Positions 9,070 through 57,577 are shown, counted from the stretch's first letter. The stretch: DNA of 64,000 bases from Candidatus Shapirobacteria bacterium (GCA_041659325.1 JBAZYN010000001.1:430819-494818), one strand, 5' to 3'. The notes: generated by a model not told the origin, from the letters alone. Numbers and translations: made by a program.

Positions 9070-10170
9070 TCACCTCCCAAACCACACTTCCATTTCATCA
9101 AAAACCGCATAGTTAAACGACACTTCCTGTCCCGGAAACCGCGCATTTTTACCCCAAATACAGGCTTTATTAACATCATCCCGCATTTGGCTAGAAATCC
9201 GTTTCAAGACATCATCAATAGTCTTTGTTTTTTTCATAATCAGCGGTTCTTTTTTATCACCCTCGGTATTTCTCTCATACCTCAGATATACCCGAACAAG
9301 TCCCAGCTCCCTCCAAATTTTTTCCTTTAATTCTTCCAGGCCAATCTCTTTATCCGCACTTAAAAATAATACTTCCCCGGTTTTTACTTTCGACTTTAGA
9401 CTTTCGACTTTAAAGTTATCAATTTTATTGATAATTCTCACTACCGGCATATATCTTCTGGATTTTGACAAGCCATCAATCAATACATCTACACTTTTGA
9501 TTTTTTCTCCAAACTGAATCAGAGCATTGTTATACCCCATTTCTTCGGCAATTTCCTCCACCAATTCTTTGTCAAAAGAATAATATGGATCAATAATTTG
9601 TATCGCTCCCTTATCAGTCCGGTTAATATGAATTTTGGGTGGTATCTGCCCCAATCTTATCCCCGATTTATAAAGTTCATTGGCCATAATATCCAGCCAC
9701 CCAATCCTTTTTACATCAGTCATTATCACCGCCAAGTCAGATGCTCTGATTACAGAAATCACTTTTTTCCCAAAACCTTTGTTTTCAGCCGCCCCCTCCA
9801 CAATACCGGGAAGATCCAAGATTTGAACTTTAACACCTTTATATTCCATCATTCCGGGGACCACGCCCAACGTAGTAAAATCATAATTTCCCACTTTCGA
9901 CTCAGCATTGGTCAGTTTATTGAGGAGTGTCGACTTTCCCACACTCGGTAGCCCCACCAAAACCACTGAAGCGTCACCGGAGTGTTTAATTGCATACCCT
10001 ACTCCTCCGCCTCCGCCTTTCCCCGACGAGCCCTGCAATTCATCCTGCAATTTAGCCATCTTGGCTTTCAAAAGTCCATGCAAGTGTTCCGTCCCTTTGT
10101 GGTATGGCGTGTCCCGAATCTCCTTCTCGATTCGAGACATCTTCATTTTTATTATTTCTTCTTTGGTCAT
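9070..10170 (-). CDS. DRG/Rbg-type Obg-family GTPase with C-terminal TGS domain
   Basis: An N-terminal helical region (TPYHKGTEHLHGLLKAKMAKL), G1 GLPSVGKST, G3 DLPG, then a TGS-like C-terminus. This architecture is typical of archaeal/eukaryotic DRG. Confidence 0.7.
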   Translation of the reverse strand: MTKEEIIKMKMSRIEKEIRDTPYHKGTEHLHGLLKAKMAKLQDELQGSSGKGGGGGVGYAIKHSGDASVVLVGLPSVGKSTLLNKLTNAESKVGNYDFTTLGVVPGMMEYKGVKVQILDLPGIVEGAAENKGFGKKVISVIRASDLAVIMTDVKRIGWLDIMANELYKSGIRLGQIPPKIHINRTDKGAIQIIDPYYSFDKELVEEIAEEMGYNNALIQFGEKIKSVDVLIDGLSKSRRYMPVVRIINKIDNFKVESLKSKVKTGEVLFLSADKEIGLEELKEKIWRELGLVRVYLRYERNTEGDKKEPLIMKKTKTIDDVLKRISSQMRDDVNKACIWGKNARFPGQEVSFNYAVFDEMEVWFGR

Positions 10171-10193
10171 TCTGATAAAATCACTAGATACAA

Positions 10194-11576
10194 ATGATAT
10201 TCATTCTTTCTCTTTTATTATTGCTTCTCAGCTACAATCAGTCTATTTTAGCATCCGAAAACATTTTTGGGGTGCATTTAACCCAACCACAGGACATTTA
10301 TACCGCAAAAGATATGATCAATAGTTCTGAGGGGGATTGGGGATGGGCCACAATTGTCATCAGAACCGATCAATTAAACCACCAAACTTGGCAGGACTTC
10401 TTTGACAATTGCCGTAAGTTCCACATTCAGCCCATTATCCGGCTAGCAACCGTGATGGAAAAAGAATGTTGGAAGCGGCCGGATTACACCGATATCGACA
10501 ATCTCGCCATATTTCTAAATTCTCTTAACTGGCCGGTCCGGGAACAGCCCGTAATCCTTTTTAACGAAATTAATCATGCCAAGGAGTGGGGTGGGGAAGT
10601 CGACATAAAAAATTACACCGACCTTGCCATTTACGCTTCCAAAAAATTCAAAGAACTTAACCCGAATTTCACTATTCTTACCAACGGTCTTGATCTGGCT
10701 GCCCCCGAAAACCCGCCTCTTAACAAATCGGCTAGCAATGTTTATCGGGAAATTTTTTTATACCGGCCGGAGTTTTTTGATTCAATCGACGCCATTGCCT
10801 CTCACTCCTACCCCAACCACGGCTATATTGGTACACCCAAAGACTCCGGGCAACACAGCATCAGAGGTTATCTGTGGGAGCAGGAATTTATCAAAAATCT
10901 CGGAATCAAAAAAATTTACCCAATATTTATCACCGAAACCGGCTGGCCCCACCGTCAGGGAGTCAAACCCGACAATGGTTTCTTTACCGCCGAAACCGCC
11001 ACCAGCTTTCTAAACCAGGCCTTCTCGATTTGGCAATCAGACCCCAACATCAAGGCCGTTACCCCCTTTATCTATAATTATCCGCATGAACCCTTCGATC
11101 ATTTTTCCTGGCTGAGCTTAGATGAAAAGCTGATGCCCGAATACCAAAAATTACTGGACACGCCAAAAAATCAAAATCAGCCGGAACAAATAACAAAATT
11201 CCATACCCAGGGCATAAAATTACCCTTTATCATTTTTACCGATACCGAATATACCGGAGAGATAGTATTAAAAAATATCGGCCAGTCAATTTGGGGAGAA
11301 AAAGGCAGTTTTTGCCTCAATCCCCAAACAACTCCAAATGTCCAACTAGACGCCATCTGCATCGGCAACGGCTTCATCTACCCAAATCAATCACTTCCCC
11401 TAAGTTTTAAATTCAAGATATTATCCGACAAAGAATTTAAAGGAAAAACTTATATTAGTTGGGAAAACACCGACACCTATCAGATTACCCCTTTTTATAG
11501 CAATGCCACTATCTACCGAAGTGAGCTCAGATTCAAAGACAAGATTATTAATTTTGTCGAAAAACTGATAAAATAG
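10194..11576 (+). CDS. Secreted glycoside hydrolase, clan GH-A (GH5-like TIM barrel)
   Basis: A signal peptide. A candidate acid/base NEINH and nucleophile ITETGW arranged as in clan GH-A. Confidence 0.5.
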   Translation: MIFILSLLLLLLSYNQSILASENIFGVHLTQPQDIYTAKDMINSSEGDWGWATIVIRTDQLNHQTWQDFFDNCRKFHIQPIIRLATVMEKECWKRPDYTDIDNLAIFLNSLNWPVREQPVILFNEINHAKEWGGEVDIKNYTDLAIYASKKFKELNPNFTILTNGLDLAAPENPPLNKSASNVYREIFLYRPEFFDSIDAIASHSYPNHGYIGTPKDSGQHSIRGYLWEQEFIKNLGIKKIYPIFITETGWPHRQGVKPDNGFFTAETATSFLNQAFSIWQSDPNIKAVTPFIYNYPHEPFDHFSWLSLDEKLMPEYQKLLDTPKNQNQPEQITKFHTQGIKLPFIIFTDTEYTGEIVLKNIGQSIWGEKGSFCLNPQTTPNVQLDAICIGNGFIYPNQSLPLSFKFKILSDKEFKGKTYISWENTDTYQITPFYSNATIYRSELRFKDKIINFVEKLIK

Positions 11577-11614
11577 ACCGTATTATTTGACAATTTATAA
11601 GTACTCCGGTGCAG

Positions 11615-11686
11615 GCGCCCATAGCTCAATGGATAGAGTACTAGTCTTCGGAACTAGTGATGTGGGTCCGATTCCCACTGGGCGTA
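11615..11686 (+). tRNA. tRNA-Arg (anticodon TCG)
   Basis: Cloverleaf with a G1-U72 wobble, anticodon loop CTTCGGA, T-loop GGTCCGATTCC. Confidence 0.75.
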
Positions 11687-11694
11687 CTTTACTT

Positions 11695-13305: not shown

Positions 13306-13306
13306 T

Positions 13307-21049: not shown

Positions 21050-22878
21050 AACTAATTATTTCTGAGTTAAAAAAACTATTACCAAATTTATCCGTAGATC
21101 CGGAAACCCTACGCGACGATTTAACCATGTTGGGCCATTTTGCCTCCGGATTGAAAAAAATTGATGGCGAAATCGTCTTTGATCTGGAAATCCGCCAAAA
21201 CCGAGCCGATTGTCTCGGCTACTACGGCCTCGCTCTCGACCTATCCGTTTTTTATAATATTAATCTAATTTTACCAACACATCCAGTTTTACAGATTACA
21301 GACCTGCCCGCCAGTCAGGCGGGTTACCGATTACCAATTACCATAAACTCCCCCGATGTTAAGAGAATTCAGGCCATCAAAATCTCCGATCTAAAAATTG
21401 CCCCTTCACCAAATTGGTTAATTAAGTTTCTCACTCTTCACGACATCAATCCCATCAACAACCTCGTTGACCTCACCAACTACGCCATGTTGGTTTATGG
21501 CATCCCTTGTCATGCTTTCGATACGGCCAAGACCACCGATAATTTGATTTGGGAAAACAATTCAAAATACAAAAGTCTTGTTTCCCTCGACGGCACTACT
21601 CTGGCATTAAAAGATAACCTCATTATTAGCAATCCCCATGAATGTCTGTCTTTGGGGTTTATTGGAGGTAAGAATTCGGGCATCGAAAATTCAACGGGCG
21701 ATACTATTTTAGAAATGGCCATTTACAACCCCACCCGTATCCGCGCCGATTCCCGTAACTTAAAAACAATTACCGAGGCATCCATTCGTCTTGATAAGTT
21801 TTTAGACACCGAAACCATACCTCAAGCTTTCGCTTTTTTAGTGGACAATGTTTTAAAAATTTGCGGTGGCACTGTTTCTAGCCAATTATTTGAACAATAC
21901 CCCCAAAAACCCAGTCCCATTTTTATCCCTTTTGATCCGTCCAAACCATCCCAATACGCCGGTATAAATATCCCTGTTAATTTTTCGGTTGATATATTAA
22001 CCCGTCTTGGCTGCAAAATTAATGCAAATTTAGTCACTCCGCCGTCTCTCCGAAAAGATATCACCATCGAAGAAGATCTGATCGAAGAAGTCATCCGATT
22101 TTACGGCTACAACAAAATCCCCCTTGATACCCCAATCTCTGCCAATCCTCTAGCGGATATCACCCCAAAAATTCTGCATTTAATCGAATCACTCAAAGAC
22201 AGTTTGGTTTCCCTTGGCTACGACGAAGTCCGTTCCTGGCCTCTCGTTCAAAAACCATTATCCCGAAACGCAATTTATACCCAAAATTCCATAAATTCTG
22301 AATACCCGGTTTTAAGGGAATCAATTGTTCAATCCCTCAAAAACCAACTGGACCAGTTCAATCGATACAAATTACCCCAACCCCGCTTTTTCGAAATCGG
22401 CAAAATATATTATCAACAAGACAAAGAGTACCGCGAAAAATACGCTCTTGGTATTTCCAGTCACGATTCCGACAAGCTGATTTCCGACATCGAAAGCATA
22501 TTTCAAAAAAAGTTTTCCACTTTTAACTCCCAAAAAATGCAAAACCAACTTTTTGTTGAAATTATTCTCGACGATCTAGAAAAACCAATAGCTTATCTCC
22601 CAAAAAACACCACCAATACCGCCATCGAGCTCACTTCTCAGATTATTACTCTCGACGCCAACGTTACATTTGATTCTCGACAGGATCCCATTTCTCTAAT
22701 CCGGCAATACACCAAAACTATTGGTCCTCAATATCTTTGGCAAATTATCGTCACCGACGAATACCAGGACCAACCGACGGGCAAATATCGTTACACTTTT
22801 CGTGTCTCCTATTACAACTGCGACGACAAAACCGCCAAACAGCTCCATCTCAAATCTTTCGACCTGATCAAAATTTAA
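21046..22878 (+). CDS. pheT: Phenylalanine--tRNA ligase beta subunit (short form)
   Basis: The B3/B4 and B5 domains and a C-terminal FDX-ACB-like domain. Its ATG overlaps the pheS TGA (ATGA). Confidence 0.85.
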   Translation: MKLIISELKKLLPNLSVDPETLRDDLTMLGHFASGLKKIDGEIVFDLEIRQNRADCLGYYGLALDLSVFYNINLILPTHPVLQITDLPASQAGYRLPITINSPDVKRIQAIKISDLKIAPSPNWLIKFLTLHDINPINNLVDLTNYAMLVYGIPCHAFDTAKTTDNLIWENNSKYKSLVSLDGTTLALKDNLIISNPHECLSLGFIGGKNSGIENSTGDTILEMAIYNPTRIRADSRNLKTITEASIRLDKFLDTETIPQAFAFLVDNVLKICGGTVSSQLFEQYPQKPSPIFIPFDPSKPSQYAGINIPVNFSVDILTRLGCKINANLVTPPSLRKDITIEEDLIEEVIRFYGYNKIPLDTPISANPLADITPKILHLIESLKDSLVSLGYDEVRSWPLVQKPLSRNAIYTQNSINSEYPVLRESIVQSLKNQLDQFNRYKLPQPRFFEIGKIYYQQDKEYREKYALGISSHDSDKLISDIESIFQKKFSTFNSQKMQNQLFVEIILDDLEKPIAYLPKNTTNTAIELTSQIITLDANVTFDSRQDPISLIRQYTKTIGPQYLWQIIVTDEYQDQPTGKYRYTFRVSYYNCDDKTAKQLHLKSFDLIKI

Positions 22879-28822: not shown

Positions 28823-28892
28823 CCATAGTTAGTTAATTGCCAGTCAACTTTCTACTTTCAACTTTCTACTTTCTACTCTATAATACCCCTAT

Positions 28893-29045
28893 ATGACAGC
28901 CTTACCTAAACATTGGCCATCCAGTCGCCGCCAGGGAAAAAGACGTGCCAGTCAAACCGGCCCAAAACTTCAAAAAACCGTTAGCTGCAAACACTGCGGC
29001 CAGCCAAAAATGGCCGGCTATCAATGCTCAAACTGTAAACAGTGA
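28893..29045 (+). CDS. rpmF: 50S ribosomal protein L32
   Basis: A 50-aa protein, MTALPKHWPSSRRQGKRRASQ...CKHCGQ...CSNCKQ, with a basic N-terminus and a Cys4 zinc ribbon. The ORF track missed it because it is under 60 aa. Confidence 0.75.
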   Translation: MTALPKHWPSSRRQGKRRASQTGPKLQKTVSCKHCGQPKMAGYQCSNCKQ

Positions 29046-33028: not shown

Positions 33029-33859
33029 TCACTTACTCAACACACGGCTGCCAGATGTTATCGCGTCCATCATAAAAAATGGTACTTTATAGCCTCTTAC
33101 GACCGTTACCTTTTTGTTCACACCAACATTGCTTAAATCTCCTGCCCGTCCCACCGATGTAATCTCCTCGCCCTGAGACGGAAAATCATACGCTGCGTTG
33201 CTCATCGATACCCTGGTGTTATTAAACAAAGGTGTCACGGAAACTAAAAGAGTCTTATTCCCCATTCCCAGGGGGAAATTAAAACAGCCCAAAGTCAAAG
33301 CCTGGTCAACAAATCCACTCACGCTATCGCTGCCGCCACCGATATTAAACCCATACCTTCCGACCTTATATTCATCCGTTGCTCCGTCTTTATAAAAATA
33401 ATCAACCTTCAGCGCCCCGACAAAGGCACTGTCAACACATATGTCTACGTCCGTACCGATAAAATGATTCGAGCTGATTGATCCGTCAGTATTATGTTCC
33501 ACCAACCAAAATAACGCCTTCTGATTCTTCAAGGTATAATTCTCAAAGTTCAACTCGTGAACCCCCACTCCACCCAACTGCCTCACCGTTACATCTGCCC
33601 TTTCCTGATTACCAGGATTTGAATAACTGGTTTTAGTCCCTTCAGAGCCAAGATAATAATCAATTCCGGATTCTGCAGCACTAAAAGCTTTCTTTAGCAG
33701 CTCCTCGTCGGTATCAATTCTGGTTTCCACCGTCGTCTTTTTGGAAATTGATAGCCCGAATGTCAATACCACCGCCGACACTATAAGCACGATCAGTGCC
33801 ACCTGGCCACTTTTTCCCTTAATTATAAATTTTAAATTAAGAATTATAAATTTTTTCAC
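33029..33859 (-). CDS. Hypothetical pilus-locus protein with N-terminal hydrophobic anchor
   Basis: An N-terminus KGKSGQVALIVLIVSAVVL that is pilin-like but lacks Glu5. A beta-rich C-terminal part. Confidence 0.4.
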   Translation of the reverse strand: MKKFIILNLKFIIKGKSGQVALIVLIVSAVVLTFGLSISKKTTVETRIDTDEELLKKAFSAAESGIDYYLGSEGTKTSYSNPGNQERADVTVRQLGGVGVHELNFENYTLKNQKALFWLVEHNTDGSISSNHFIGTDVDICVDSAFVGALKVDYFYKDGATDEYKVGRYGFNIGGGSDSVSGFVDQALTLGCFNFPLGMGNKTLLVSVTPLFNNTRVSMSNAAYDFPSQGEEITSVGRAGDLSNVGVNKKVTVVRGYKVPFFMMDAITSGSRVLSK

Positions 33860-38580: not shown

Positions 38581-39936
38581 TTACTCAGTTCCTATTGTCA
38601 TCCCCACACTATTTGCCACTGTCAACCGTGCCATCGAGGGCGGACCATTTGGACCGACACATGTAATTCTATTTATTGCCCCAACACCCCAACTGCCGTC
38701 ACATGCGCTAATCGCGTGTACCCAAATATCATACGTCCCTCCCGGTTCAAAAGTATAATATTTGTAAGTCGTACTCACATCCTCACAAACATCTCCCGGG
38801 TTGGTTGGGGTACATGCACTGTTAAAAGAACTTGGCGAATCATCAACCCTCAAAGGATAATAGTCAGCCCCGGCCACCGGATTCCAGGATATTCTATTTC
38901 CGGCCACATCACAGACTAGTCCGGCCGGATTGGCAACCGGCTCACAGGCTGAATCAGGGATTGGTGTCGCCGACGGGGCACAAGCCGCGCAATTCCACGA
39001 CCCCCCTCCGTCTACATACATACAGACCAAGGGTGAATTCAGGCATTCCATGTGGCAACAATTTAATCCATAAACAGAATTCCCCCAATCTACATAACAA
39101 GACGATGCCGACACTTTTACCCCACAAACGCCACATGAAGCATCACATAGGGGATAGCCTGGTCCGGGAGTATTGGTGGGAGTAGGGGCTATTGTCCTCG
39201 TTGCTGTTGGCGCTCCCGGTACCGGAGTCCGGGTTGCCGTTGGCGTCGGAGTCCGGGTTGCTGTTGGCACTCCCGGTACCGGTGTCCGCGTTGCCGTTGG
39301 CGTCGGTGTCCGGGTTGCTGTTGGCACTCCCGGTACCGGTGTCCGCGTTGCCGTTGGCGTCGGTGTCCGGGTTGCTGCTAGCGTCGGTGTCCGGGTCGGA
39401 GTCGGAGTCACACAGGAAGCAGACGATATACAGCTCACCGTCCCGCTAAAGCTTTTCTTTCCGTCCCATCGGCTGCAATAAGTCCCATCATTCCTCAAAA
39501 TTTGATTTGAAGGACAGCTCAAACTCACGCTAGGGCCCGATACCCAACCCGTATTGCAAGCCCCCAATCCACACCAATTTAATCCTGACCACCCGCACGA
39601 TTCATTCCAAACACTGGTTTGGCAGGCAGGTGCGGGAGTCGACGTCGGCACCGCAACCGGGGTAGAAGTAGGCGGAGTTCCACAGCTTGTATTCTCTCCA
39701 TTACACTGATCACTTCCTTCACCGGAAACTGTTTTACAAACATAACTGCTGTTACAAGTCCGCCGGCAACAAGAATCGCTATTTGTATAATTACACCCCC
39801 CCGCAGGGGTACAACACGACATATTACAAACTCCATGACTACTGTCGCAATTACAAGCCCCCTGGGCAAAAGTAGGACGTGGCGAAAACAAAACGGTACT
39901 CAACAAAAACAATAAATACAAAAAAACTATTTTCAT
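38581..39936 (-). CDS. Secreted cysteine-rich protein with Thr/Pro tandem repeats (paralog family member D)
   Basis: Signal peptide. The module CDASCGVCGV...NCCHMEC...CAACAPS is shared with the 33860 gene. There are 3.5 copies of a 19-aa TRTPTPTATRTPVPGVPTA repeat. Confidence 0.6.
   Translation of the reverse strand: MKIVFLYLLFLLSTVLFSPRPTFAQGACNCDSSHGVCNMSCCTPAGGCNYTNSDSCCRRTCNSSYVCKTVSGEGSDQCNGENTSCGTPPTSTPVAVPTSTPAPACQTSVWNESCGWSGLNWCGLGACNTGWVSGPSVSLSCPSNQILRNDGTYCSRWDGKKSFSGTVSCISSASCVTPTPTRTPTLAATRTPTPTATRTPVPGVPTATRTPTPTATRTPVPGVPTATRTPTPTATRTPVPGAPTATRTIAPTPTNTPGPGYPLCDASCGVCGVKVSASSCYVDWGNSVYGLNCCHMECLNSPLVCMYVDGGGSWNCAACAPSATPIPDSACEPVANPAGLVCDVAGNRISWNPVAGADYYPLRVDDSPSSFNSACTPTNPGDVCEDVSTTYKYYTFEPGGTYDIWVHAISACDGSWGVGAINRITCVGPNGPPSMARLTVANSVGMTIGTE
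39186..39410. repeat. 57-bp tandem repeat (about 3.5 units) inside the CDS
   Basis: A direct repetition of GTTGCTGTTGGCACTCCCGGTACCGGTGTCCGCGTTGCCGTTGGCGTCGGTGTCCGG with a few substitutions. Confidence 0.85.
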
Positions 39937-40432: not shown

Positions 40433-40466
40433 AACTAAAGATTAAAGTATCCCCGCACCTATGTCA

Positions 40467-40498
40467 ATCGAGGCGGGATCTTTCGATTCCCGCCTCGA
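40467..40498 (-). terminator. Perfect 11-bp-stem hairpin TCGAGGCGGGA-N10-TCCCGCCTCGA downstream of the 40524 gene
   Basis: It lies 26 nt after the stop. A near-identical copy (one mismatch) follows the 41528 gene at 41453-41482. Confidence 0.45.
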
Positions 40499-40523
40499 TT
40501 ATCTACTTTAAATTCAACTTATC

Positions 40524-41123: not shown

Positions 41124-41300
41124 TTATTTTTATTTAAAAAATAATTAATTAGCGAACAGACGTAATATAACAAATATTCTAGGACATGTCAATATCATAT
41201 TTACTCTATCCTTGCATACAATCAATTATATCAAAAAATTTAAAATATTCATTATAAAATATTATACACACCAATTACACACGCCAAAAATCACTCCTCC
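41124..41300. repeat. About 180-bp direct repeat (promoter/5'UTR), copy 1
   Basis: More than 90% identical to 42029-42205. Confidence 0.85.
41164..41192 (-). promoter_or_regulatory. Consensus sigma70-type promoter TTGACA-17-TATATT
   Basis: Read on the minus strand, about 45 nt upstream of the ATG. It lies inside the 180-bp direct repeat. Confidence 0.5.
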
Positions 41301-41527
41301 CATTCTAAAAAAATCAACCCTAAAGAAATTTTCGCCTCCCCCCTATCTCTTTTTTTATCAACACCGCCGCCCCCGTCCGAAAAACATAAAGATTAACTCC
41401 TAGTCACAAATAAAGACTAATGAATTACTTCTCGTATGTCAATCGAGGCGGGATCTTTCGATTCCCGCCTCAATTAATTACTTAAATTCAAACCTACTCT
41501 GCAAACCCCACTTGCATTGCAAACGAT

Positions 41528-42028: not shown

Positions 42029-42205
42029 TTATTTACTATTTAAAAAATAATTAATTAGCGAGCAACCGTAATATAACATATATTCTAGGACATATCAATA
42101 TCATATTTACTCTATCCTTGCATACAATCAATTATATCAAAAATATTAAAATATTCATTATAAAATATTATACACACCAATTACACACGCCAAAAATCAA
42201 TTTCT
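42029..42205. repeat. About 180-bp direct repeat, copy 2
   Basis: See 41124-41300. Confidence 0.85.
42070..42098 (-). promoter_or_regulatory. Sigma70-type promoter TTGATA-17-TATATT (duplicate)
   Basis: The same architecture as 41164-41192, in the second copy of the 180-bp repeat. Confidence 0.45.
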
Positions 42206-42772
42206 TATCTTTATTTCCGAGGAAAAGTATTTCGAAACAAAGTCACTCGGGCCACCGCCCGATAGGCCGGAGCTCAAATAAAATCCCACGCTCAAATCGA
42301 CCACTTTTCCTGTCGATGGGGAAGTCGTCCCGCTGATAAAATTCCCGCAACCGCTCACCTCCACTTCTTCGCCGCTCAGCCGAACGGTATTCGCCGACAC
42401 CGATGCAATTTGGCTATCTGCCGACTCCACACATTGAATTGTCGTCCCTATGCTCGACAAGGAAACCCAAGATTTATCCGCCGGGTCCAATTCGATTGTC
42501 TCTCCCGGAGCATTTATCACGTTTTTTCTGATTTCCGACAATACCCAAGCCCCATTCTGCTCCACCTTATCCGCCCAATTGATCCTGTTTTTCGCCTTAA
42601 AAGAATTAACCAAAACGGTAGTTATAGAAGTCAGGATAAACCCCATCACTGATACCACCACCACTATTTCAATCAAACTAAAACCCATCCTTTTAATCTC
42701 CCTTTCGTCAAAGGGAGATACCCCCACAATAGTGGGGGAGAGGGATTTTGCTTTTGACTCTTTTCTTCTCAT
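42197..42772 (-). CDS. Prepilin-like protein (class III signal, G|FSLIE)
   Basis: KRMGFSLIEIVVVVSVMGF. An R1 repeat copy lies in the putative leader-coding region, so the start could instead be the M directly before G. Confidence 0.65.
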   Translation of the reverse strand: MRRKESKAKSLSPTIVGVSPFDEREIKRMGFSLIEIVVVVSVMGFILTSITTVLVNSFKAKNRINWADKVEQNGAWVLSEIRKNVINAPGETIELDPADKSWVSLSSIGTTIQCVESADSQIASVSANTVRLSGEEVEVSGCGNFISGTTSPSTGKVVDLSVGFYLSSGLSGGGPSDFVSKYFSSEIKIRN

Positions 42773-43176
42773 ATCCTCGAAAATACCCTATTTAACTTAA
42801 GTATCTGCATTTCCTTTGCCGTCCATTGAACTGTTACCGTTACAAGAACACAAGACGGACACTCCACAATAGAGCTATCAGAATTGTTGAAAACAATTGT
42901 ATATGTATATCCCGGAAACTCTGTCAGTGTTTGCCATGTTGTCGTCGCATACACAAAGGGCGATTCAAAAAATCCCTCCGGGTCAGCTTCTCTGGCTTTC
43001 ATCATTTTCTCCATTACCACCTCCGCCATCCGGCCTGCCGTCTTTCGGTCAAAACTTCTTGTCTTTGTAGAAACCGAAGACACCAACAGCACCACCACCC
43101 CCGAAAGCACCAGTACCACTATTGCTACCGAAAATATTAAATCAACCAGACTTTGACCAAAATTTTTATTATTCAT
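42769..43176 (-). CDS. Minor pilin/pseudopilin-like protein (G|QSLVDL)
   Basis: MNNKNFGQSLVDLIFSVAIVVLVL, a class III-like signal with Asp in place of Glu5. Confidence 0.55.
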   Translation of the reverse strand: MNNKNFGQSLVDLIFSVAIVVLVLSGVVVLLVSSVSTKTRSFDRKTAGRMAEVVMEKMMKAREADPEGFFESPFVYATTTWQTLTEFPGYTYTIVFNNSDSSIVECPSCVLVTVTVQWTAKEMQILKLNRVFSRI

Positions 43177-43669
43177 TTATCAATCCCGAAGCAGAAACTC
43201 TAACCATCAACCCGCCTCCGCCGGGATCTTCCATCCGGCTCACATCACCGGCAAAAACAGTAAAACCCACTCCCGAATTTACCGGGCTACCGGAAGAATC
43301 CACCAGTTTTCCTTCATAAGAAGCAAACCTCAAACTTGTCCCGACCCCAATCATCACCCCCTCGGGAGAAATATCTTTACTAAAATATTGAGCCGCGCCA
43401 GCATCGTTTGGAAAAACCGAAACGTTTCCCTCGCTGTCAACAGAAAATGTTACATATTTCAAGTCCGCCACTCCGCTCATACTCTGCCCTGTCATGGCAT
43501 AATTTCTTGCCATCCTCAGGCTGGTTATCAGCCCCTCCCGGGCTTCTTCAATTTTTTGAGTTGATCCGAATTTGTTCAAAGATACCACCCCCACCGTTAT
43601 CACCAACCCCATTATTGTTATCGCCACCACTAACTCCACCAAAGTAAATCCCCGTGACCTCACGTTCAT
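43169..43669 (-). CDS. Prepilin-like protein (G|FTLVEL)
   Basis: MNVRSRGFTLVELVVAITIMGL. Confidence 0.7.
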   Translation of the reverse strand: MNVRSRGFTLVELVVAITIMGLVITVGVVSLNKFGSTQKIEEAREGLITSLRMARNYAMTGQSMSGVADLKYVTFSVDSEGNVSVFPNDAGAAQYFSKDISPEGVMIGVGTSLRFASYEGKLVDSSGSPVNSGVGFTVFAGDVSRMEDPGGGGLMVRVSASGLINE

Positions 43670-43834
43670 ATATATAAATCTACCATATTACGTCATTACG
43701 ATCCTGAGCCCGTCGAAGGAGTGACAATCTTTAAACCTGCGACTTTGTAGGAAAATCACCACAACCTTCGGTCTCGAAATAACGAGCAGTGTTCTCCTTA
43801 CAGATTACAGATTACCAATTACTGATTACCAAAT

Positions 43835-44275
43835 TTACGGCTGTGTCACCCGATAGTTACAATTTCCGGTCGTACACGATACCGCAGTCGCAATCGTTGT
43901 TCCTGTCTCCATCCTGGCATATAGAAAATAGGTGTAATTAGTCTGCCGGTCATAAACATAGGTATCGCTACTCGGCCCAACCGGGTAAGCCGACAAAAAC
44001 CCTCCCGAAGTCAATACTGATATGCTTGAGTCATCAGGATATGTCGTCCCCACCTGTCTCACCACTTCCAGTGCCATTCTGATTCTCTCCAAATCGGCCT
44101 GCCTTCTCCCGTCCCTTGCCTTTCTATTCGTCGTTCCGAAACTCACCGTCGCAATCGCCGTAATTATTGCAATTATAGTTATCACCACAATCAATTCAAT
44201 CAAACTGAAACCTAGTTTTTTTGTAGTGCCCCTCCTTTCGTCAAAGGAGGGGGTAGGGGTAGATTTAATTCTCAT
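43835..44275 (-). CDS. Prepilin-like protein (G|FSLIEL) with 22-aa leader
   Basis: KKLGFSLIELIVVITIIAI. Part of the leader is encoded by an R1 repeat copy (PSFDERRG). Confidence 0.65.
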   Translation of the reverse strand: MRIKSTPTPSFDERRGTTKKLGFSLIELIVVITIIAIITAIATVSFGTTNRKARDGRRQADLERIRMALEVVRQVGTTYPDDSSISVLTSGGFLSAYPVGPSSDTYVYDRQTNYTYFLYARMETGTTIATAVSCTTGNCNYRVTQP

Positions 44276-44733
44276 TGTTGATTCTTAACACAATAATGAG
44301 TCTTATTGCCAACCCCCGTAAAATTACAGCTAGCATTAATAGAATTTCCTGCAGTCGTATTTTCAAGCTGTGCGCATACGCAATAATCCGGTACACCAAC
44401 AACAAAACCTCCGGTAACCGTATATGGTGTCACATTCTTGGGATCAACAGGCCAAGCCTGCAAAAAACCTCCGCTGATTAAACCACTACTAAAAGCAGCA
44501 ACTGTTCCCACTGGTGGATACACTGAATTATTCATCAAATAATACTGCTCCGCCGCCGTCTGAATATTTTTCATATCCTGCATCCTTCTCGCATCCCGCC
44601 CTTTCTTTTGCGCGTTCGAATAAGACACCGTCGCAATCGCCGTAATTATTGCGATTATGGAAATTGTTATCAAAAGTTCAAACAAAGTAAAGCCTGTCTG
44701 CCGAAAGGCATGGCCATTTTTTATTTTTTTCAT
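44272..44733 (-). CDS. Prepilin (G|FTLFELL)
   Basis: MKKIKNGHAFRQTGFTLFELLITISIIAI. The ORF extends to 44754. Confidence 0.7.
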   Translation of the reverse strand: MKKIKNGHAFRQTGFTLFELLITISIIAIITAIATVSYSNAQKKGRDARRMQDMKNIQTAAEQYYLMNNSVYPPVGTVAAFSSGLISGGFLQAWPVDPKNVTPYTVTGGFVVGVPDYCVCAQLENTTAGNSINASCNFTGVGNKTHYCVKNQQ

Positions 44734-44734
44734 T

Positions 44735-45172
44735 TTATTTTGCGCACACAACAAATAATTTGTCTGTAGTTCCGGCAGCCAATCCGCATACTCCCGTATT
44801 CGCTCCGCAATCTATCTGGGATTTTATATCCTCATCGCCGCTTCCCGCGTCCAAACCCACACACAAATCAAAAGTCTCACCGGCCGCATCAACTGTATAA
44901 GTGCACCCAATCCCGCTCATCCCCGGAAGATAGCTAGCCAACGTGGCCGACAAACCTGCACAGGTAGAAAACCCAACCGGATACGATTGATGCTCGTTGT
45001 AGTACATTCTCAGGGCATTTTTAACTGCATTGAGATCAGAAATCCGCTGGGTATCTTTGGCCCTCTCTCTGGCTCCCATAAAATTCGGCAACAATATCGC
45101 CGTCAGGGTAGCAATAATCGAAATCGCCACCAAAAGCTCAATCAGGGTAAATCCAAGTTTTCCGTTTTTCAT
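44735..45172 (-). CDS. Prepilin (G|FTLIELL)
   Basis: MKNGKLGFTLIELLVAISIIA. Confidence 0.75.
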   Translation of the reverse strand: MKNGKLGFTLIELLVAISIIATLTAILLPNFMGARERAKDTQRISDLNAVKNALRMYYNEHQSYPVGFSTCAGLSATLASYLPGMSGIGCTYTVDAAGETFDLCVGLDAGSGDEDIKSQIDCGANTGVCGLAAGTTDKLFVVCAK

Positions 45173-45181
45173 AATTAAATG

Positions 45182-45700
45182 TTAATAGATAGTTAAATCC
45201 GGATCCAACGGATCATTATTAACACTGGATATCGCAAAACAAAAAGCATTATTTCTCCCGCACGCAGTGTAAAGCAAGTCTCCGCTTCCGTCTTTAAGAC
45301 ACTCCGGATCATTGGTGTTTTCCAGGATTGTATACAAAGAAAACTTTTTTTGGTCAGGAGACACTACATAGCAATACTGAGTTGGGGATGGCAGTATATT
45401 TTCTTTTGGTACCACCTTCATATATGTATACCCGGTAAGATCTTTCAATTCCAATCCCCACAATACATTTAAGCCCCTCCCTCCCTCCAAATCAGTCGCT
45501 ATCGGATATTTCCCATAATCGGCATAATACATCTGCAGGGCCTTGGCCACCGAGCTGATATCGGTCTTCCTTTGTGAATCGGCCGCCCTTTTCCTGGCCA
45601 AAGTAAACTGTGATGCCGTGATTATCGTCAATATCCCCATAATGGTTATTACCACCAAAAGCTCAATCAGGGTAAATCCATTTTTACTTATTTTTATCAT
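45182..45700 (-). CDS. Prepilin (G|FTLIELL)
   Basis: MIKISKNGFTLIELLVVITIMG. Confidence 0.75.
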   Translation of the reverse strand: MIKISKNGFTLIELLVVITIMGILTIITASQFTLARKRAADSQRKTDISSVAKALQMYYADYGKYPIATDLEGGRGLNVLWGLELKDLTGYTYMKVVPKENILPSPTQYCYVVSPDQKKFSLYTILENTNDPECLKDGSGDLLYTACGRNNAFCFAISSVNNDPLDPDLTIY

Positions 45701-45729
45701 TGCTACTTAATCATAACAGATTTGTTAAC

Positions 45730-46419
45730 TCACTCTCGACAACCCAACGCCCCCCACCATTCCAGTCCTCCTCCGGGGCAAAGATCAATCTGGCAGTCAG
45801 TACTTGGCGCCCAATAACAATTTGCCCCCGAGCAATTGGCCTGTTTCCAATTGCCTTCGTCCAGAACCCTACAGGCGTAGTTACAGATATCACCACAGGA
45901 TTCGGGATATACAGTTGTATCATACCAATTGGCATTTGGACTGGAAACTCCATAATTTACCGGCGAAGAGGTATATGCCCCTGCTCCCGATATACCCCCC
46001 CAGCCAACAGGAATATCCCGATCGGCCAAAAACTCTAAGTAAGCATACGCTCTATATTCATCCGGGCAGCTGCTACTGGAATCCACAATTATTTCATACG
46101 GGTCACCATCCGGATCGCACGGCCACGGAGTCAACCAGGGAGAAAATATAATTCCGCTATCACAATTTACCGGATTCTGTAATTCATCAACTTTCGCCTG
46201 GTTGGGATAGCATCCCTTGTCGTTGTAATATTCCTCAAACGCAGTCTTAATCCTCGACAAATCTTTTTTTCTCCTGGCATCCTTACCCTTATTAACCAGA
46301 GCAATTGGGTTAATAATCCCGATTATAATCACCGACATCAGGGCAATTATTGACATCACTATCAACAATTCCGTCAATGTAAAACCCGCAGACCAAATAG
46401 CATTCCCCTTCCTTCCCAT
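45730..46419 (-). CDS. Prepilin (G|FTLTELL)
   Basis: MGRKGNAIWSAGFTLTELLIVMSIIA. Confidence 0.75.
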   Translation of the reverse strand: MGRKGNAIWSAGFTLTELLIVMSIIALMSVIIIGIINPIALVNKGKDARRKKDLSRIKTAFEEYYNDKGCYPNQAKVDELQNPVNCDSGIIFSPWLTPWPCDPDGDPYEIIVDSSSSCPDEYRAYAYLEFLADRDIPVGWGGISGAGAYTSSPVNYGVSSPNANWYDTTVYPESCGDICNYACRVLDEGNWKQANCSGANCYWAPSTDCQIDLCPGGGLEWWGALGCRE

Positions 46420-46422
46420 AAA

Positions 46423-47220
46423 TTACTCTAACATTTTTTGGACATAGAAACCAACGCTCCCGCTCCACCACCAGGCCACCAATGTCCCCAATATCAGAAA
46501 CGGACCAAATGGTATGACTGATTTTCTTTTTACCTTTTTTACCGCCATCAATACCAATCCCACTATCGCTCCCGACACAAACGCCACATAAAAAGCCAGT
46601 ACTGTCTTTTCGGGGCCTAGCAACAATCCCATAAACACCGCATACTTTACATCTCCCATCCCCATCCCTTTCCCCTTAGTTATCACGTGTAAAAACAGTA
46701 AAAATCCTGCCGCTCCAACCGCCGCTAATAAATAAGGGACTACATTTTTCTCATCAAAAAACACCCCGGCAAAGGCGATAACAATCAGTATTATCGTAGA
46801 AAAATCCGGCAATATCATGTATCTAAAATCAAACACCGCACTAAACACCAACATCGTGATTATTACCAACTCCAAAACAAAAAAAACGTTAAATTCGTAA
46901 TTTGAAATTCGTAATTCGTAGTTAATTAAAAATAATATCCCCATTGTAATTTCTACAATAGGGTAGGAGACCGGTAAACTTTTGGCACAACATCTGGTTT
47001 TTCCGCCCTGCGTCAGCCACGAAATTATTGGCACATTCTCAAACCACCTCAACTGTCTTCCGCAATAATCACAATAACTCCTTTCTTGAGACTTTAGGAC
47101 TTTTGGACTTTTAGACTTTAAGACTTTATATCGAACAGCAGTTCGATAAACTACCATATTCACAAAACTCCCAAAGCACGCCCCCAAGACAAAAATCGTT
47201 ATCAAAAGCAACATTTCCAT
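46423..47220 (-). CDS. pilD: Prepilin peptidase (A24 family)
   Basis: An N-terminal Cys tetrad (CFGSF...CDYC) and the conserved Asp-containing TM core. It contains in-frame octamer and heptamer repeat insertions. Confidence 0.8.
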   Translation of the reverse strand: MEMLLLITIFVLGACFGSFVNMVVYRTAVRYKVLKSKSPKVLKSQERSYCDYCGRQLRWFENVPIISWLTQGGKTRCCAKSLPVSYPIVEITMGILFLINYELRISNYEFNVFFVLELVIITMLVFSAVFDFRYMILPDFSTIILIVIAFAGVFFDEKNVVPYLLAAVGAAGFLLFLHVITKGKGMGMGDVKYAVFMGLLLGPEKTVLAFYVAFVSGAIVGLVLMAVKKVKRKSVIPFGPFLILGTLVAWWWSGSVGFYVQKMLE

Positions 47221-47224
47221 AATC

Positions 47225-47580
47225 TATTGTACTAATACCCCTCCTTTCCTCAAGGGAGGGATTAAGGGTGGATTTTTGCCCCTCCGTCATTACGAGGAGC
47301 AGTTATATAAGCGACGTGGTAATCGTTACAGAATTAAAATAGTCGAGTTGTTTCAGGATTACGAAGCCTGTCCCGAGAAACGAGGTATCGTTTCTCCTCG
47401 CAATGACAAACATTCTAACCCTCCCTTCGTCGAGGGAGGGAATAAAAGGGTGGGTTTGGCTTGAGGGTAGATTTAGATTTATCCCTCCCTTTTCAAGGGA
47501 GGGAAGGGTGGGTTTAACCTAAAACCCCGCCTTTCGGCGGGGTTAAATTCGTAATTCGTAATTACTAATTCCTGCCTGCC
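47225..47580. repeat. Repeat-dense intergenic region: four R1-family hairpins, AATTCGT heptamer repeats and a roughly 130-nt closed stem-loop element
   Basis: Hairpins CCCTCC(C)-loop-GGGAGGG at 47238, 47419 and 47481, and CCCCGCC-TTTCG-GCGGGG at 47523. GTCATTACGAGGAG at 47289 pairs with CTCCTCGCAATGAC at 47393. Confidence 0.7.
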
Positions 47581-47605
47581 GGCAGGCATGGCGTAATTAA
47601 CCTCA

Positions 47606-54419: not shown

Positions 54420-56411
54420 ATGATCACCCTCGACACCCTCGATCTCCAACACTTGTCCCCGCAGGACTTAGGCGAGCTTCTTATCTCCGCCAAAAACGCC
54501 TATTACACCACCGGCAAGCCCATCATGGATGACCACACCTACGATACCCTTGAGGAAATTCTTCGTCAAAAAAATCCGCATCATCGGATTTTTCAAAAAG
54601 TCGGCAACAAAAATTTTGATACCGGCTTTCTCAAAAAATCCCATTCCATGCCCATGGGCTCCCAAAACAAAGTCACCACCGCCGCCGAGTTAGTCCACTA
54701 CTTCGAGCTAAAAAAAATCGCCGGAGGCAACGTTGATATGCAAAGCATATCTTACGTTGTTCAACCAAAAATCGATGGAATTTCCCTCGAAATCGAATAT
54801 AAAGACGGCAACCTAATCGATGCCATTACTAGGGGAGACGGTTTTATCGGTGACGTTATCACTCAAAATGTCGTCCGTATGCAAAATTTCCGTGAAAGAT
54901 TAAATGAGGATTTTACTGGTACCATCCGCTGCGAAATCGTCGTTACCTACAAAGATTTTAAAAAACTAAACAAAATTGTTGAAAAAAATAATACTCCCTC
55001 CCATTTTCAAGGGGAGGGTGGGGGAGGGGTTTCATACTCCAATCCCCGCAATGCCGTCTCCGGCATTTCTCAACGGTTAGACGGAAAATTTTCCGAATTA
55101 TGCAGTCTGATAGCCGTCGACATTTCCCCGGAACCGGCTTTGGAATCAGAAAAAATCACTAAACTTAAATCGCTGGGTTTCATTCCCGTCGAAACTCATC
55201 TCTGTCAAAATTTTAACCAAATCGAACAAATCTACCAACAATTTCTCACCAAAACCCGCAAAACTTATCCCTTTGAAATTGACGGCTTAATAGTCAAAAT
55301 AAATAATCTGAAAATTGCCCATCATCTTGGTTCCAAAAATAATCGGCCAAAATTTCAAATCGCATACAAATTCCCGGCCGAAAGCAATCAAACTCAAATC
55401 AAGAAAATTGAATGGCAGGTCGGTCCTTTGGGTACTATTACCCCGGTTGGTCAAGTTGAGCCAATTGAGTTGACCGGCGCTGTCATTACCTTCGCCTCCC
55501 TGGGTAATTACGATTTGGTTATTCAAAAAAACATCAATATTGGCGATATTGTAGAAATATCCCGTCGCGGCGATGTTATTCCCCATGTCGAAAAAATCAT
55601 CACCAAGGTCAACCCGGGCCATGTTGATATCCCCATCCTCTGTCCCAGCTGTCAAACTAAATTGATCAAAGAAGACAAATTCCTCCGCTGCCCCAATCCA
55701 AAAAATTGTTTAGCCCAAATATTAGGGTCTCTGCGCCTTTTTTGTGATACCCTTGGCATCCTTGGTCTTTCCGACAAAACCATCGCCAAACTCTATCAAG
55801 CCGACAAAATTCGTCTCCCGGGAGATTTCTACAAACTAACCATCGGCGACATTAGTAATCTTGTTAATCTTGGAGAAAAATCAGGCAAAAATATTATTTA
55901 CCAAATCCAAACCAAAAAAAACCTGACCCTCAAGCAAGTTTTTGATGCCGCTATCATTCCCAATTTCAGCGCCGCCCGTATTCAACAATTAATTACAGCC
56001 GGTTTCAATACCCCGGAGAAACTTTTAAATATTTCCAAAGTCGAAATTGAATCTCTCCCCGGTTTTCAAAAAACCCTGGCCGAAAAAATTCAGGCGGGAA
56101 TAGAGTTACGAAAAGAATGGTTAAAATCCATCCTCTCCCAAGTTCAGATTACCAACCACCAATTACCAGTTACCAATTACAGATTACAAGGCCTAGCCTT
56201 CGCTATCACCGGCGATCTTTCCCAACCCCGAAAAAAAATTGAAGATCTGATCGAACAAAACGGGGGATCAGTCAGTTCTTCGGTTTCCAAAAATACTTCT
56301 TACCTCATAACAAACGAAACTAAGTCAAATTCTTCAAAATTTCTCGCCGCCAAAAAATTCGGTACCAAAATCATCACCGAAACTAAGTTTCTAGAACTCA
56401 TTAACTCGTAA
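54420..56411 (+). CDS. ligA: NAD-dependent DNA ligase
   Basis: The adenylation motif KIDGIS, OB-fold, Zn finger (CPSCQ...C..C), HhH and C-terminal BRCT. It contains in-frame R1 and ATTACNN repeat insertions. Confidence 0.9.
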   Translation: MITLDTLDLQHLSPQDLGELLISAKNAYYTTGKPIMDDHTYDTLEEILRQKNPHHRIFQKVGNKNFDTGFLKKSHSMPMGSQNKVTTAAELVHYFELKKIAGGNVDMQSISYVVQPKIDGISLEIEYKDGNLIDAITRGDGFIGDVITQNVVRMQNFRERLNEDFTGTIRCEIVVTYKDFKKLNKIVEKNNTPSHFQGEGGGGVSYSNPRNAVSGISQRLDGKFSELCSLIAVDISPEPALESEKITKLKSLGFIPVETHLCQNFNQIEQIYQQFLTKTRKTYPFEIDGLIVKINNLKIAHHLGSKNNRPKFQIAYKFPAESNQTQIKKIEWQVGPLGTITPVGQVEPIELTGAVITFASLGNYDLVIQKNINIGDIVEISRRGDVIPHVEKIITKVNPGHVDIPILCPSCQTKLIKEDKFLRCPNPKNCLAQILGSLRLFCDTLGILGLSDKTIAKLYQADKIRLPGDFYKLTIGDISNLVNLGEKSGKNIIYQIQTKKNLTLKQVFDAAIIPNFSAARIQQLITAGFNTPEKLLNISKVEIESLPGFQKTLAEKIQAGIELRKEWLKSILSQVQITNHQLPVTNYRLQGLAFAITGDLSQPRKKIEDLIEQNGGSVSSSVSKNTSYLITNETKSNSSKFLAAKKFGTKIITETKFLELINS

Positions 56412-56492
56412 ACTTTGTAACTTTCAGACTTTGAGACTTTTAGACCTTCGGCTTTTTGACTTTCAGACTTTGAGACTTTAGACTCTTTCATC

Positions 56493-56912
56493 ATGATCTT
56501 CAAAAACCCTTCCCAATCCGCCTCGCTCTTAGCCCAAAAAATAATTGAAGAGGGGATAGCCCAATCTTCTCTTATCACCTATATCGATTCTGATGATAAA
56601 AATTATTGCCAACAAATTGCCGATAACTTGTCCCTCAAATTAGAATATCTCCCCAACCTAATAAGGGACAAATTCACCTTTGCCCTCCCGAATTTAATTA
56701 TTGCCGACTCCGGTCAAACCCGGGGACAAGAGTACAACGAGTTCACCGACCTCATCCGAAAAATTTATCCAACAATTAGGATTTATCTGGCAATTCCTGT
56801 TATCCCCTTATCCGAAGAAGAAGTTCTAAAACAAGCCTGTGATTCCCTCATCACTCTTCATGTCGAACCCCTCTTCTTTTCCCTCGATCAGTTCTACGAA
56901 ATCTCCCCGTAG
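56493..56912 (+). CDS. Hypothetical protein
   Basis: A 139-aa ORF with no recognisable motif. Confidence 0.35.
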   Translation: MIFKNPSQSASLLAQKIIEEGIAQSSLITYIDSDDKNYCQQIADNLSLKLEYLPNLIRDKFTFALPNLIIADSGQTRGQEYNEFTDLIRKIYPTIRIYLAIPVIPLSEEEVLKQACDSLITLHVEPLFFSLDQFYEISP

Positions 56913-57023
56913 TATACACAACCAATACACACTAGCAATCACACGCCCCGAGTGCTAATCAGCACATAAATTTACCTTTATCCTATCCTTAGGGAATAAG
57001 TAAACTTGTTCTATACTACACAC

Positions 57024-57548
57024 ATGAAGTTATTCGTCGGTCTCGGTAATCCGGGAGAAAAATATCGGCTCACCCGCCACAACCTGGGACAAATGGTTGT
57101 CAATCAATTTGTAGCAACGCATCACAATGCGTTCCTCTCCAATAAAAAATTATCTGCCAAAATCGCCGAGTATCAAAATTCAAAATTTGCCACCCTTAAC
57201 TCCTTTATGAACGAGTCTGGTTTTCCGGTCAGCAAAATCGTCAATTACTTCAAAATTAGCCCACAGGATCTCTACATAATTCACGATGATCTTGATTTGC
57301 CGATAGGGGAGTACCGTTTCCAGTGCGACCGCGGCCCGGCCGGGCACAAAGGGGTTTCCTCCATCATCGAACAGCTCGGCACCCAAGCCTTCCACCGCAT
57401 CCGTATTGGTATCGGTAAACCCACCACTCCCATTGCGGTCGAAGACTATGTCCTCCAGCCATTTTCAAAAGAAGAACAGGTGCTAATAAACCAAACTATT
57501 GATAAAATAATTACCGAGACAAAAACAATAACGGATTTTAATTCGTAA
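57024..57548 (+). CDS. pth: Peptidyl-tRNA hydrolase
   Basis: The N-terminus MKLFVGLGNPGEKY..TRHN. 175 aa. Confidence 0.85.
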   Translation: MKLFVGLGNPGEKYRLTRHNLGQMVVNQFVATHHNAFLSNKKLSAKIAEYQNSKFATLNSFMNESGFPVSKIVNYFKISPQDLYIIHDDLDLPIGEYRFQCDRGPAGHKGVSSIIEQLGTQAFHRIRIGIGKPTTPIAVEDYVLQPFSKEEQVLINQTIDKIITETKTITDFNS

Positions 57549-57577
57549 TTAATAATTCGTAATTCGTAATTGATTTC

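Follow-up and report, generated by a model that had tools for sequence, protein, structure and literature searches.

Cyanobacterial genomes were recognised around 1990 as containing tandem repeats of heptanucleotides. The short tandemly repeated repetitive (STRR) sequences of Calothrix, Nostoc and Anabaena comprise 7-nt units arranged head to tail in about three to ten copies, with a few unit families occupying many loci of one genome, units varying by species, and most arrays lying in intergenic DNA near start or stop codons. Vioque is said to have found them in 1997 at a permissive helix within the RNase P RNA gene, where the unit varied from strain to strain. Two other kinds of short repeats invite comparison: contingency loci, such as the HMW1A heptamers of Haemophilus, in which tandem short units are located in genes or promoters and a change of one unit alters frame or spacing, and the selfish Rickettsia palindromic elements (RPEs) and Nostoc small dispersed repeats (SDRs), which are inserted in frame in genes and, in the case of the SDRs, also into heptamer arrays. 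Heptameric simple-sequence repeats (SSRs) are over-represented in many bacteria, with slippage related to the polymerase footprint proposed as the cause (PMC4692102, citing Mrazek 2007). As for the arrays described below, the function and origin of the STRRs are not established (PMC4692102). A study of Nostoc describes altered reporter expression where heptamers were repeated contiguously near a start codon or promoter, and postulates that they have a binding partner (bioRxiv 10.1101/2022.06.06.494920). The present analysis concerns the short tandem-repeat arrays in a 64,000-nt stretch of Candidatus Shapirobacteria bacterium (GCA_041659325.1, JBAZYN010000001.1:430819-494818; hereafter the window), a member of the Microgenomates within the Candidate Phyla Radiation (CPR).

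The arrays are best explained, at a probability of roughly 0.55, as heptanucleotide and occasionally octanucleotide SSRs of the STRR type, which occur throughout the Microgenomates, originate at the DNA level and are filtered by selection. Using Tandem Repeats Finder (TRF) and direct reading of the sequence, all seven arrays named in a preliminary description of this DNA were found, and their gene contexts were confirmed (DRG GTPase, pilD, ligA, pth and rpmF). Twelve arrays, assignable to the two unit families ACTTTNN and ATTACNN, are present in the window (Table 1). A periodicity scan (periods 5–9) detected eight arrays, compared to a mean of 0.1 in thirty third-order Markov shuffles and none in 50 kb of Escherichia coli K-12 scanned alike. 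Six of the eight have a period of 7, and the two others a period of 8 with the same ACTTT core. The named arrays show 76–92 % matches and mostly comprise four to five units; in the array at 9383 a 14-mer is doubled exactly, with 100 % periodicity. The ACTTT family consists of the ACTTT core and a spacer of two or three bases, which gives a period of 7 at 9386 and 28847, 8 at 47090 and a mixture at 56420; it had first been described as an octamer. AATTCGT had been taken for a further family, but its reverse complement is ACGAATT, which rotates to ATTACGA, and it hence represents the ATTAC family in the opposite orientation. Members of this ATTAC(C/A/G)N family also occur at 8569, 21290–21345, 43798 and 56148. 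The peptide encoded by the array in the DRG GTPase gene is NFKVESLKSKVKT, rather than LKSKVESLKSKV as first given.

The signal is restricted to tandem copies, with no excess of dispersed single units in the window (26 copies of GACTTT versus 33 of AAAGTC). A dispersed motif resembling uptake sequences or KOPS was considered and discarded, as no unit-derived 6–8-mer is over-represented or strand-biased on its own. About half of the window arrays fall in the roughly 10 % of the sequence that is non-coding.

A separate assembly of this DNA was available in the form of two Logan contigs from run SRR18595301, which are 100 % identical to the window over 42170–47595 and 54646–57568. These spans reach five of the seven named arrays, that at 57537–57572 only for the most part, with contig L209 ending within it; the arrays at 9383 and 28845 lie outside both contigs. 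The array at 56409 is identical in L209, as is that at 43798 in L001. Assembly artefact, raised in the preliminary description as a finding that would count against the arrays, is thus an unlikely source of those covered. Both Logan contigs terminate at, or within a few dozen bases of, repeats, with the end of L001 located exactly at 42170.

Table 1 Repeat arrays, GC-rich hairpins and host or neighbouring genes. Positions refer to the window, except where a locus of a relative (L number) is given
Feature	Position (strand)	TRF span	Copies or period	Location and encoded product
ACAGATT (= ATTACAG) array, ATTAC superfamily	8569–8591 (+)			In frame in radical-SAM/UPF0004 gene
ACTTTCG/ACTTTAG array	9383–9415 (+)	9386–9412	3.9 copies (about 4 units)	DRG-type GTPase gene (minus strand); hypervariable loop after NKxD motif
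ATTACAG x2 and TTACCNA x3	21290–21345 (+)			Within pheT, with GC hairpin CCTGCCCGCCAGTCAGGCGGG between the two sets of heptamers
ACTTTCT array	28845–28878 (+)	28847–28877	4.4 units	Spacer upstream of rpmF; ends 2 nt 5' of TATAAT
AATTATA/AATTAAG array	33821–33852 (+)		4.6 units	Junction of two minus-strand open reading frames
TTACAGA/TTACCAA array	43798–43832 (+)		4.6 units	Spacer between two pilin-like genes
ATTACGA array (+ strand AATTCGT)	46890–46927 (-)	46892–46920	4.1 copies	pilD site 2; encodes NYELRISNYEFN
GACTTTNA octamer array, TRF unit AGACTTTA	47089–47130 (+)	47089–47128	5 units	pilD site 1; encodes YKVLKSKSPKVLKSQ
AATTCGT array	47544–47572 (+)	47546–47571	3.7 units	Intergenic, pilin gene to pilD, between two GC-rich hairpins
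ATTACCA array	56148–56188 (+)			ligA linker, HhH to BRCT domain; encodes QITNHQLPVTNYRLQ
ACTTT-core array, TRF unit ACTTTCAG	56409–56489 (+)	56412–56484	Period 8, some 7; about 8.4 TRF copies plus leading units (about 9–10 units)	Entire 81-nt spacer, ligA stop codon to ATG of 139-aa open reading frame
AATTCGT array, TRF unit TAATTCG	57537–57572 (+)	57539–57571	4.7 units	Overlaps pth stop codon, fills spacer as far as tRNA-Ala; TAA in all three frames
DRG-type GTPase gene	9070–10170 (-)			Host gene
rpmF (L32)	28893–29045			Neighbouring gene
pilD (prepilin peptidase)	46423–47220 (-)			Host gene
ligA (NAD-dependent ligase)	54420–56411			Host gene
pth (peptidyl-tRNA hydrolase)	57024–57548			Overlapped at its stop codon
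GC-rich hairpin family CCCCTCCTTTC-loop-GAAAGGAGGGG and variants	7999–8022, 44229–44252, 47239–47260, 47419–47440, 47482–47504, 54996–55018			Intergenic between pilin gene and pilD; within radical-SAM gene, pilin-like gene and ligA
21-nt hairpin GGGCGACCACAAGAGTCGCCC	L135:3591, L152:10481, L153:7567, L155:3467, L168:974, L169:10105, L186:10105			In pilD
Palindrome CCTGCCTGCCGGCAGGCAGG	47573–47592; L151:383; L127:10839 and 12627; L137:280; L162:2748; L180:5480			Intergenic in the window, inside pilD site 1 in L151, beside pilD in other species

The DRG GTPase of the window is 100 % identical to a protein encoded on a 574-kb contig of a Candidatus Shapirobacteria metagenome-assembled genome. Homologues of the PilD protein encoded in the window are found in Shapirobacteria, Woesebacteria and other Microgenomates. 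Eighty metagenomic loci of such relatives, together with two obtained through exact-protein look-ups, gave a set of 82 loci (664 kb) centred on pilD; look-ups with the exact PilD, RpmF and TTG-start Pth proteins of the window gave no match. When this set was scanned for periods of 4–12 alongside shuffled controls, 82/103 arrays had a period of 7, with about three arrays in the shuffles. A microsatellite-like system, as had been suggested, is therefore borne out for the window, and extends to the lineage. The units in the relatives are AT-rich (AATTTTC, AATTTCT, AATTACG, AATTACC, AATTATC, TCAGATC, TAGATCG, AAAGTNN and AAAGTAG), with a minority of octamers, TCAGCTTT and CAGNTTTT, which are similar to AGACTTTN of the window. 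Arrays occur in about thirty-five species clusters and their units differ among species, with the mean unit distance being 1.83 within and 2.26 between genomes (permutation p < 0.0005), a modest effect. Forty-five of the arrays are situated in pilD itself, on which the choice of loci was centred, while 47 of the 58 outside this gene do not lie within long open reading frames (ORFs). Beyond the Microgenomates, the pattern (AATTACN)x3 plus AATTAC, sought in a single genome of each species, matched at least 120 loci, mostly in Nostocales and Oscillatoriales. Among the matches listed, Nostoc, Calothrix, Fischerella, Microcoleus and Rivularia predominate, and Bacteroidales, Saprospiraceae, Chloroflexia, Acidobacteriota (Pyrinomonadaceae) and Planctomycetes are also represented; the remaining arrays in these listed loci are mostly heptamers too (169/227). 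A search of the available literature for heptamer or microsatellite repeats in CPR/Patescibacteria returned no relevant description.

The arrays within genes recur at the same sites. All 45 pilD arrays are located at one of two positions, namely nt ~80–100, directly before the first CxxC motif (site 1), and nt ~280–330, in a short loop between two hydrophobic stretches (site 2). They comprise three to nine copies, have different units by species and are always in frame. At site 1, AAAGTNN, AATTACG or TCAGATT arrays, or alternatively a GC hairpin, are found in the relatives, with the ACTTT family occupying this site in the window and likewise in L126, L135, L143 and L190. Site 2 carries heptamer arrays with units other than the ATTACGA of the window in about thirty of the relatives' loci; L003 has AATTACG there, and L137 and L184 have ATTACCA. 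The pilD gene of L182 incorporates 7.7 perfect AATTTTC units. The linker between the HhH and BRCT domains of ligA is similarly occupied by ATTACCA in the window, GATTACC in L131, CTACGAT in L152 and ATCTACA in L196, with further arrays in L154 and L193 and a GC hairpin in L157. The loop after the NKxD motif of the DRG GTPase is indel-rich among homologues, and the closest relative, L206 (85 % nucleotide identity), lacks the 9383 array; the window is longer than L206 by 18 nt here, within a stretch of about 30 nt over which the two cannot be aligned. On the basis of this alignment, the DRG array appears to be a recent block event, in which a block was replaced relative to close relatives. Its reading as a pure insertion was abandoned, as the window protein aligns without gaps to yeast Rbg1 and length alone is therefore no marker. 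A further observation concerns the pilD genes of L129 and L135, where the end of the gene and the sequence just downstream are almost identical, whereas the 5' half, with both array sites, is strongly diverged and site 2 holds a heptamer array in one and a GC hairpin in the other. This suggests that pilD is a mosaic here, produced by recombination with a breakpoint within the gene.

Consecutive heptamers fall in all three reading frames, and the 7-nt period is therefore a property of the DNA, which selection on the protein cannot make. Synonymous variation is absent from perfect (AATTTTC)4–8 arrays. Coding constraint is nevertheless visible: a perfect consensus copy would place an in-frame stop codon in 17/40 pilD arrays, and in all seventeen only the in-frame copy is substituted, while out-of-frame stops persist. 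The intergenic arrays occupy operon spacers and the ends of genes. It is common for them to have TAA in each of the three frames, and overlap with a stop codon is frequent, as in pth of the window and at the C-terminus of pilD in several relatives. Rfam comparison identified tRNAs only and no family matching the arrays, and scans for promoter and terminator consensus sequences yielded counts not clearly above those in shuffles. Matches to a -35-like TTGAC within the 56409 array were weak and were not counted as promoter evidence. The possibility that array orientation is set by the replication strand was also discarded, since the intergenic arrays of the relatives split into 15 C-rich and 15 G-rich despite a uniform skew. 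The GC skew is very strong: on the plus strand it is about -0.23 across the window (1–64000), whichever way the genes point, and each of the 55 relatives' loci longer than 3 kb has a value of about +0.29 on the strand that encodes pilD.

Two of the spacers that hold arrays have features of their own. A perfect TATAAT is located 6 nt upstream of the rpmF ATG (28879–28895), leaving no space for a Shine-Dalgarno sequence, which suggests a transcript that is leaderless or has a very short leader; the ACTTTCT array stands where the -35 element and spacer of such a promoter would be. Directly 3' of the long ACTTT array, between ligA and pth, lies a 139-aa ORF (56493–56912) without a Pfam match. In the syntenic relative L003, ligA and pth are adjacent and both this ORF and the 56409 array are missing.

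Several of the array sites are shared with GC-rich hairpins. A search of 83 sequences, the window and the 82 relatives' loci, yielded 40 hairpins of the CCCTCC..GGAGGG type, distributed over 30 of these sequences. The hairpin in ligA encodes an extra loop, PSHFQGEGGGGVS, which is not present in many relatives. The 21-nt hairpin GGGCGACCACAAGAGTCGCCC is found in pilD of several species at three positions (nt ~104, ~300 and ~480–490) and in two reading frames (KGDHKSRP or GRPQESP), a behaviour resembling that of a very small DNA element that inserts in frame. Another hairpin, CCTTCGCCAAGGCTACGGAAGG, is present at pilD site 1 in six loci. The pheT hairpin located between heptamers recalls the SDRs inserted into heptamer arrays in Nostoc. 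A general association between hairpins and arrays was considered and rejected, with five hairpins within 15 nt of an array compared to 4.6 expected by random placement; nesting is seen in the single cases at 21290–21345 and 47523–47592.

Two explanations, under which the arrays would be no real feature or would act as switches, can be weighed against these data. An artefact, whether of chance low-complexity sequence, of codon-usage periodicity in Lys/Ser/Asn-rich peptides or of faulty assembly, might be entertained for an AT-rich genome (43 % GC) encoding low-complexity peptides. It can practically be dismissed, considering the excess over the shuffles, the inability of codon selection to yield a 7-nt period, the identical arrays in intergenic DNA, the exact match of the Logan contigs and the recurrence of the same pattern in dozens of unrelated metagenome assemblies. 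Contingency-locus variation, which the preliminary description had proposed, would entail that slippage reversibly frameshifts pilD and other genes, or shifts promoter spacing at rpmF, causing phase variation, for example the loss of type IV pili and escape from pilus-dependent phages. Neither 7 nor 8 is divisible by three, and one-unit changes within a gene would thus shift the frame; all type IV pilin processing depends on pilD, in which two sites bear arrays across the lineage; some species have long perfect arrays in this gene, as in L182; and the rpmF array takes the place of the -35 element and spacer. However, pilD is intact in 82/82 relatives, with no frameshifted 'off' alleles, and the ligA reading frame is open wherever the gene aligns over its whole length. 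In comparisons of assembled contigs rather than reads, no difference in arrays was seen between samples of one species, among them two contigs with 99.8 % identity over the rest of their sequence, and the arrays in the Logan contigs match those of the window. Between the window and L206, the 8569 array differs by two substitutions but not in length, between flanks that are about 90 % identical. Furthermore, the window arrays are imperfect, and their hosts and neighbours are mostly housekeeping genes (DRG GTPase, ligA, pth, rpmF, pheT and the radical-SAM enzyme, besides pilD), with no particular association with promoters of surface-protein genes. Switching off ligA, pheT or the DRG GTPase, or the adjacent pth and rpmF, would be lethal. 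Contingency-type switching is thus very improbable and is not supported as a general explanation, although rare switching might occur at pilD in species with long perfect arrays.

In the STRR-type explanation, a process acting on DNA with a strong preference for a 7-nt register would make short head-to-tail arrays and sometimes replace them, with replication slippage or misalignment, or short-patch recombination between arrays, as the likeliest generators. Harmful arrays would be purged by selection, leaving survivors in short gene-end spacers and in length-tolerant loops and linkers of proteins, where arrays within genes would stay in frame with a few point changes that avoid in-frame stops. 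Once fixed, arrays would change mainly by substitution or wholesale replacement; in the cases checked, frequent gain or loss of single units is not the way in which they change. The named arrays are then probably structural by-products with at most weak effects in cis, rather than phase-variation switches. The slippage bias initially put forward accords with the published hypothesis for a unit of about 7 nt, but one-unit steps cannot build the arrays in essential genes.

This last point is one of several which weigh against the STRR-type explanation. As the gain or loss of one unit shifts the frame, stepwise slippage cannot have built the arrays in ligA, pheT and the DRG GTPase, and the birth of an array within a gene must be a block event of 18–21 nt or more, or a replacement. 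Unit families moreover recur at unlinked loci of one genome, with two families accounting for the twelve arrays of the window. A 30-nt array of four AATTTCT/AATGTCT heptads, AATTTCTAATGTCTAATTTCTAATGTCTAA, matches at 30/30 positions between two species and at 29/30 in a third, yet the pilD genes of these species are only 69–71 % identical and the flanks of the element differ; it is also present at non-orthologous loci. Convergence could explain the recurrence of short perfect arrays. Perfect AATTTTC arrays at pilD site 2 are likewise scattered over the PilD tree. Neutral slippage does not account for these observations, which suggest that the arrays are homogenised, renewed in a targeted way or under selection for their DNA or RNA sequence. 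Active homogenisation, or a function, might thus lie behind those arrays that are more strongly conserved than the adjoining sequence and turn up at unrelated loci.

Two alternatives build on these observations. If the arrays were functional cis-elements, they would bind a lineage-specific DNA or RNA factor, or act as unstructured AU-rich intercistronic spacers, and thereby tune transcription, mRNA processing or translation initiation, with the copies in genes being tolerated spill-over. The arrays often span the entire gap from a stop codon to the next start codon or tRNA, the 30-nt element outconserves the adjacent coding sequence across species, and unit families recur within a genome; the effect of heptamers near start codons and promoters on reporter expression in Nostoc also fits (bioRxiv 10.1101/2022.06.06.494920). 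Orthologous sites, however, have unrelated units by species, or no array in many relatives, as between ligA and pth of L003; about half of the arrays are within genes; and neither an Rfam match nor an excess of promoter- or terminator-like sites was found. Such a role is accordingly considered quite doubtful. Alternatively, short-patch gene conversion, templated repair or a mobilising enzyme might copy the arrays, like the GC hairpins, from one locus to another, which would make them very small selfish insertions, placed in frame in permissive loops in the manner of the RPEs and SDRs. This is unlikely, if less doubtful. Different species, and loci that are not orthologous, do share near-identical arrays, a block is replaced by the DRG array when compared with a relative of 85 % identity, the identical 21-nt hairpins in seven loci show that an insertion process operates on the DNA there, and the pheT hairpin is nested inside an ATTAC array. 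Conversely, neither target-site duplications nor conserved flanks were found for the arrays, with no search made for an enzyme, the arrays are direct repeats rather than palindromes and show no overall association with the hairpins, and local renewal of short perfect arrays is equally able to explain their recurrence. A broader proposal, that the heptamer arrays and the GC hairpins alternating with them are actively propagated or homogenised DNA elements of the Microgenomates, either copied from locus to locus or renewed through selection exerted by a lineage-specific binding factor, is advanced only tentatively, at odds well below even. If it is right, the arrays would settle in frame, time and again, in the same permissive loops of essential proteins, continually rewriting short stretches of conserved proteins, as a miniature CPR counterpart of the RPEs of Rickettsia and the SDR/STRR systems of Nostoc, and minimal CPR genomes would offer a tractable setting in which to address why bacteria generate heptamer repeats.

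Other repeats are also present in the window. A GC-rich 57-nt tandem repeat (39193–39409; 3.2 copies, 94 % matches, 24-nt sub-period) is located within a 451-aa ORF on the minus strand (38581–39936), in the most GC-rich part of the window. The spacers of the pilin-like genes (40466–40500, 41445–41471, 41261–41287 and 42167–42193) hold duplicated modules, comprising a hairpin, GAGGCGGGATCTTTCGATTCCCGCCTC, which occurs twice, and a 13-mer, ATTACACACACCA, in 2.1 copies, which also occurs twice.

The arrays share with the cyanobacterial STRRs the unit length, head-to-tail arrangement and copy number, the use of few unit families at many loci of one genome, the variation of units by species and, for the intergenic arrays, the placement near start and stop codons, and the AATTACN unit is common to them and to many Nostocales and Oscillatoriales genomes. 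The occupation of pilD, ligA and DRG sites by different units in different species parallels that reported for the RNase P RNA gene. They differ in that the host is not a large multicellular cyanobacterium but a CPR bacterium with a very small genome, in being shorter (20–80 nt), in the large share located in frame in essential genes at lineage-conserved sites, and in the 8-nt variant with the same ACTTT core. The units are furthermore AT-rich (AATTNNN, ACTTTNN and CAGATNN), compared to the classical STRR units CCCCAGT, TTGGTCA and CAACAGT. Like the arrays, the RPEs and SDRs are short repeats found at scattered, unrelated loci and, in frame, in permissive loops of conserved proteins, a likeness which concerns the GC hairpins that share array sites and the recurrent 30-nt heptad element. 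Unlike RPEs, the arrays are not palindromic, although the co-resident hairpins are; they are about five-fold shorter, and no evidence of mobility was obtained. From contingency loci, with which they share tandem short units in genes and promoter regions where a one-unit change alters frame or spacing, they are set apart by the lack of observed length polymorphism, their short and imperfect structure, the mostly housekeeping hosts and the intact state of all orthologues examined. The heptanucleotide SSRs of other bacteria, such as GGGAATC in Xanthomonas (Mrazek 2007, via PMC4692102), are alike in the excess of period 7 over neighbouring periods, in intergenic enrichment and in the variation of length and sequence among related species at the same intergenic positions (PMC4692102). 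The Xanthomonas and Nostoc repeats treated in that study are G-rich and quadruplex-capable, in contrast to the AT-rich arrays here, and the recurrent in-frame occupancy of the same protein loops is not described in it (PMC4692102).

The arrays are thus best filed as STRR-type repeats in a new host lineage, the CPR/Microgenomates, and stand out for their recurrent in-frame occupancy of fixed loops of essential proteins. Their annotation as phase-variation switches is unwarranted without read-level evidence. Together with the co-located GC hairpins, they account for much of the length variation in the otherwise conserved PilD, LigA and DRG GTPase proteins of the Microgenomates. The presence of STRR-type repeats, including the AATTACN unit, across a lineage with small genomes widens their known range, and provides a simpler background in which the replication, repair or binding factor responsible might be found. 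The CPR setting and the co-occurring in-frame GC hairpins thereby offer a new angle on the origin of heptamer repeats.

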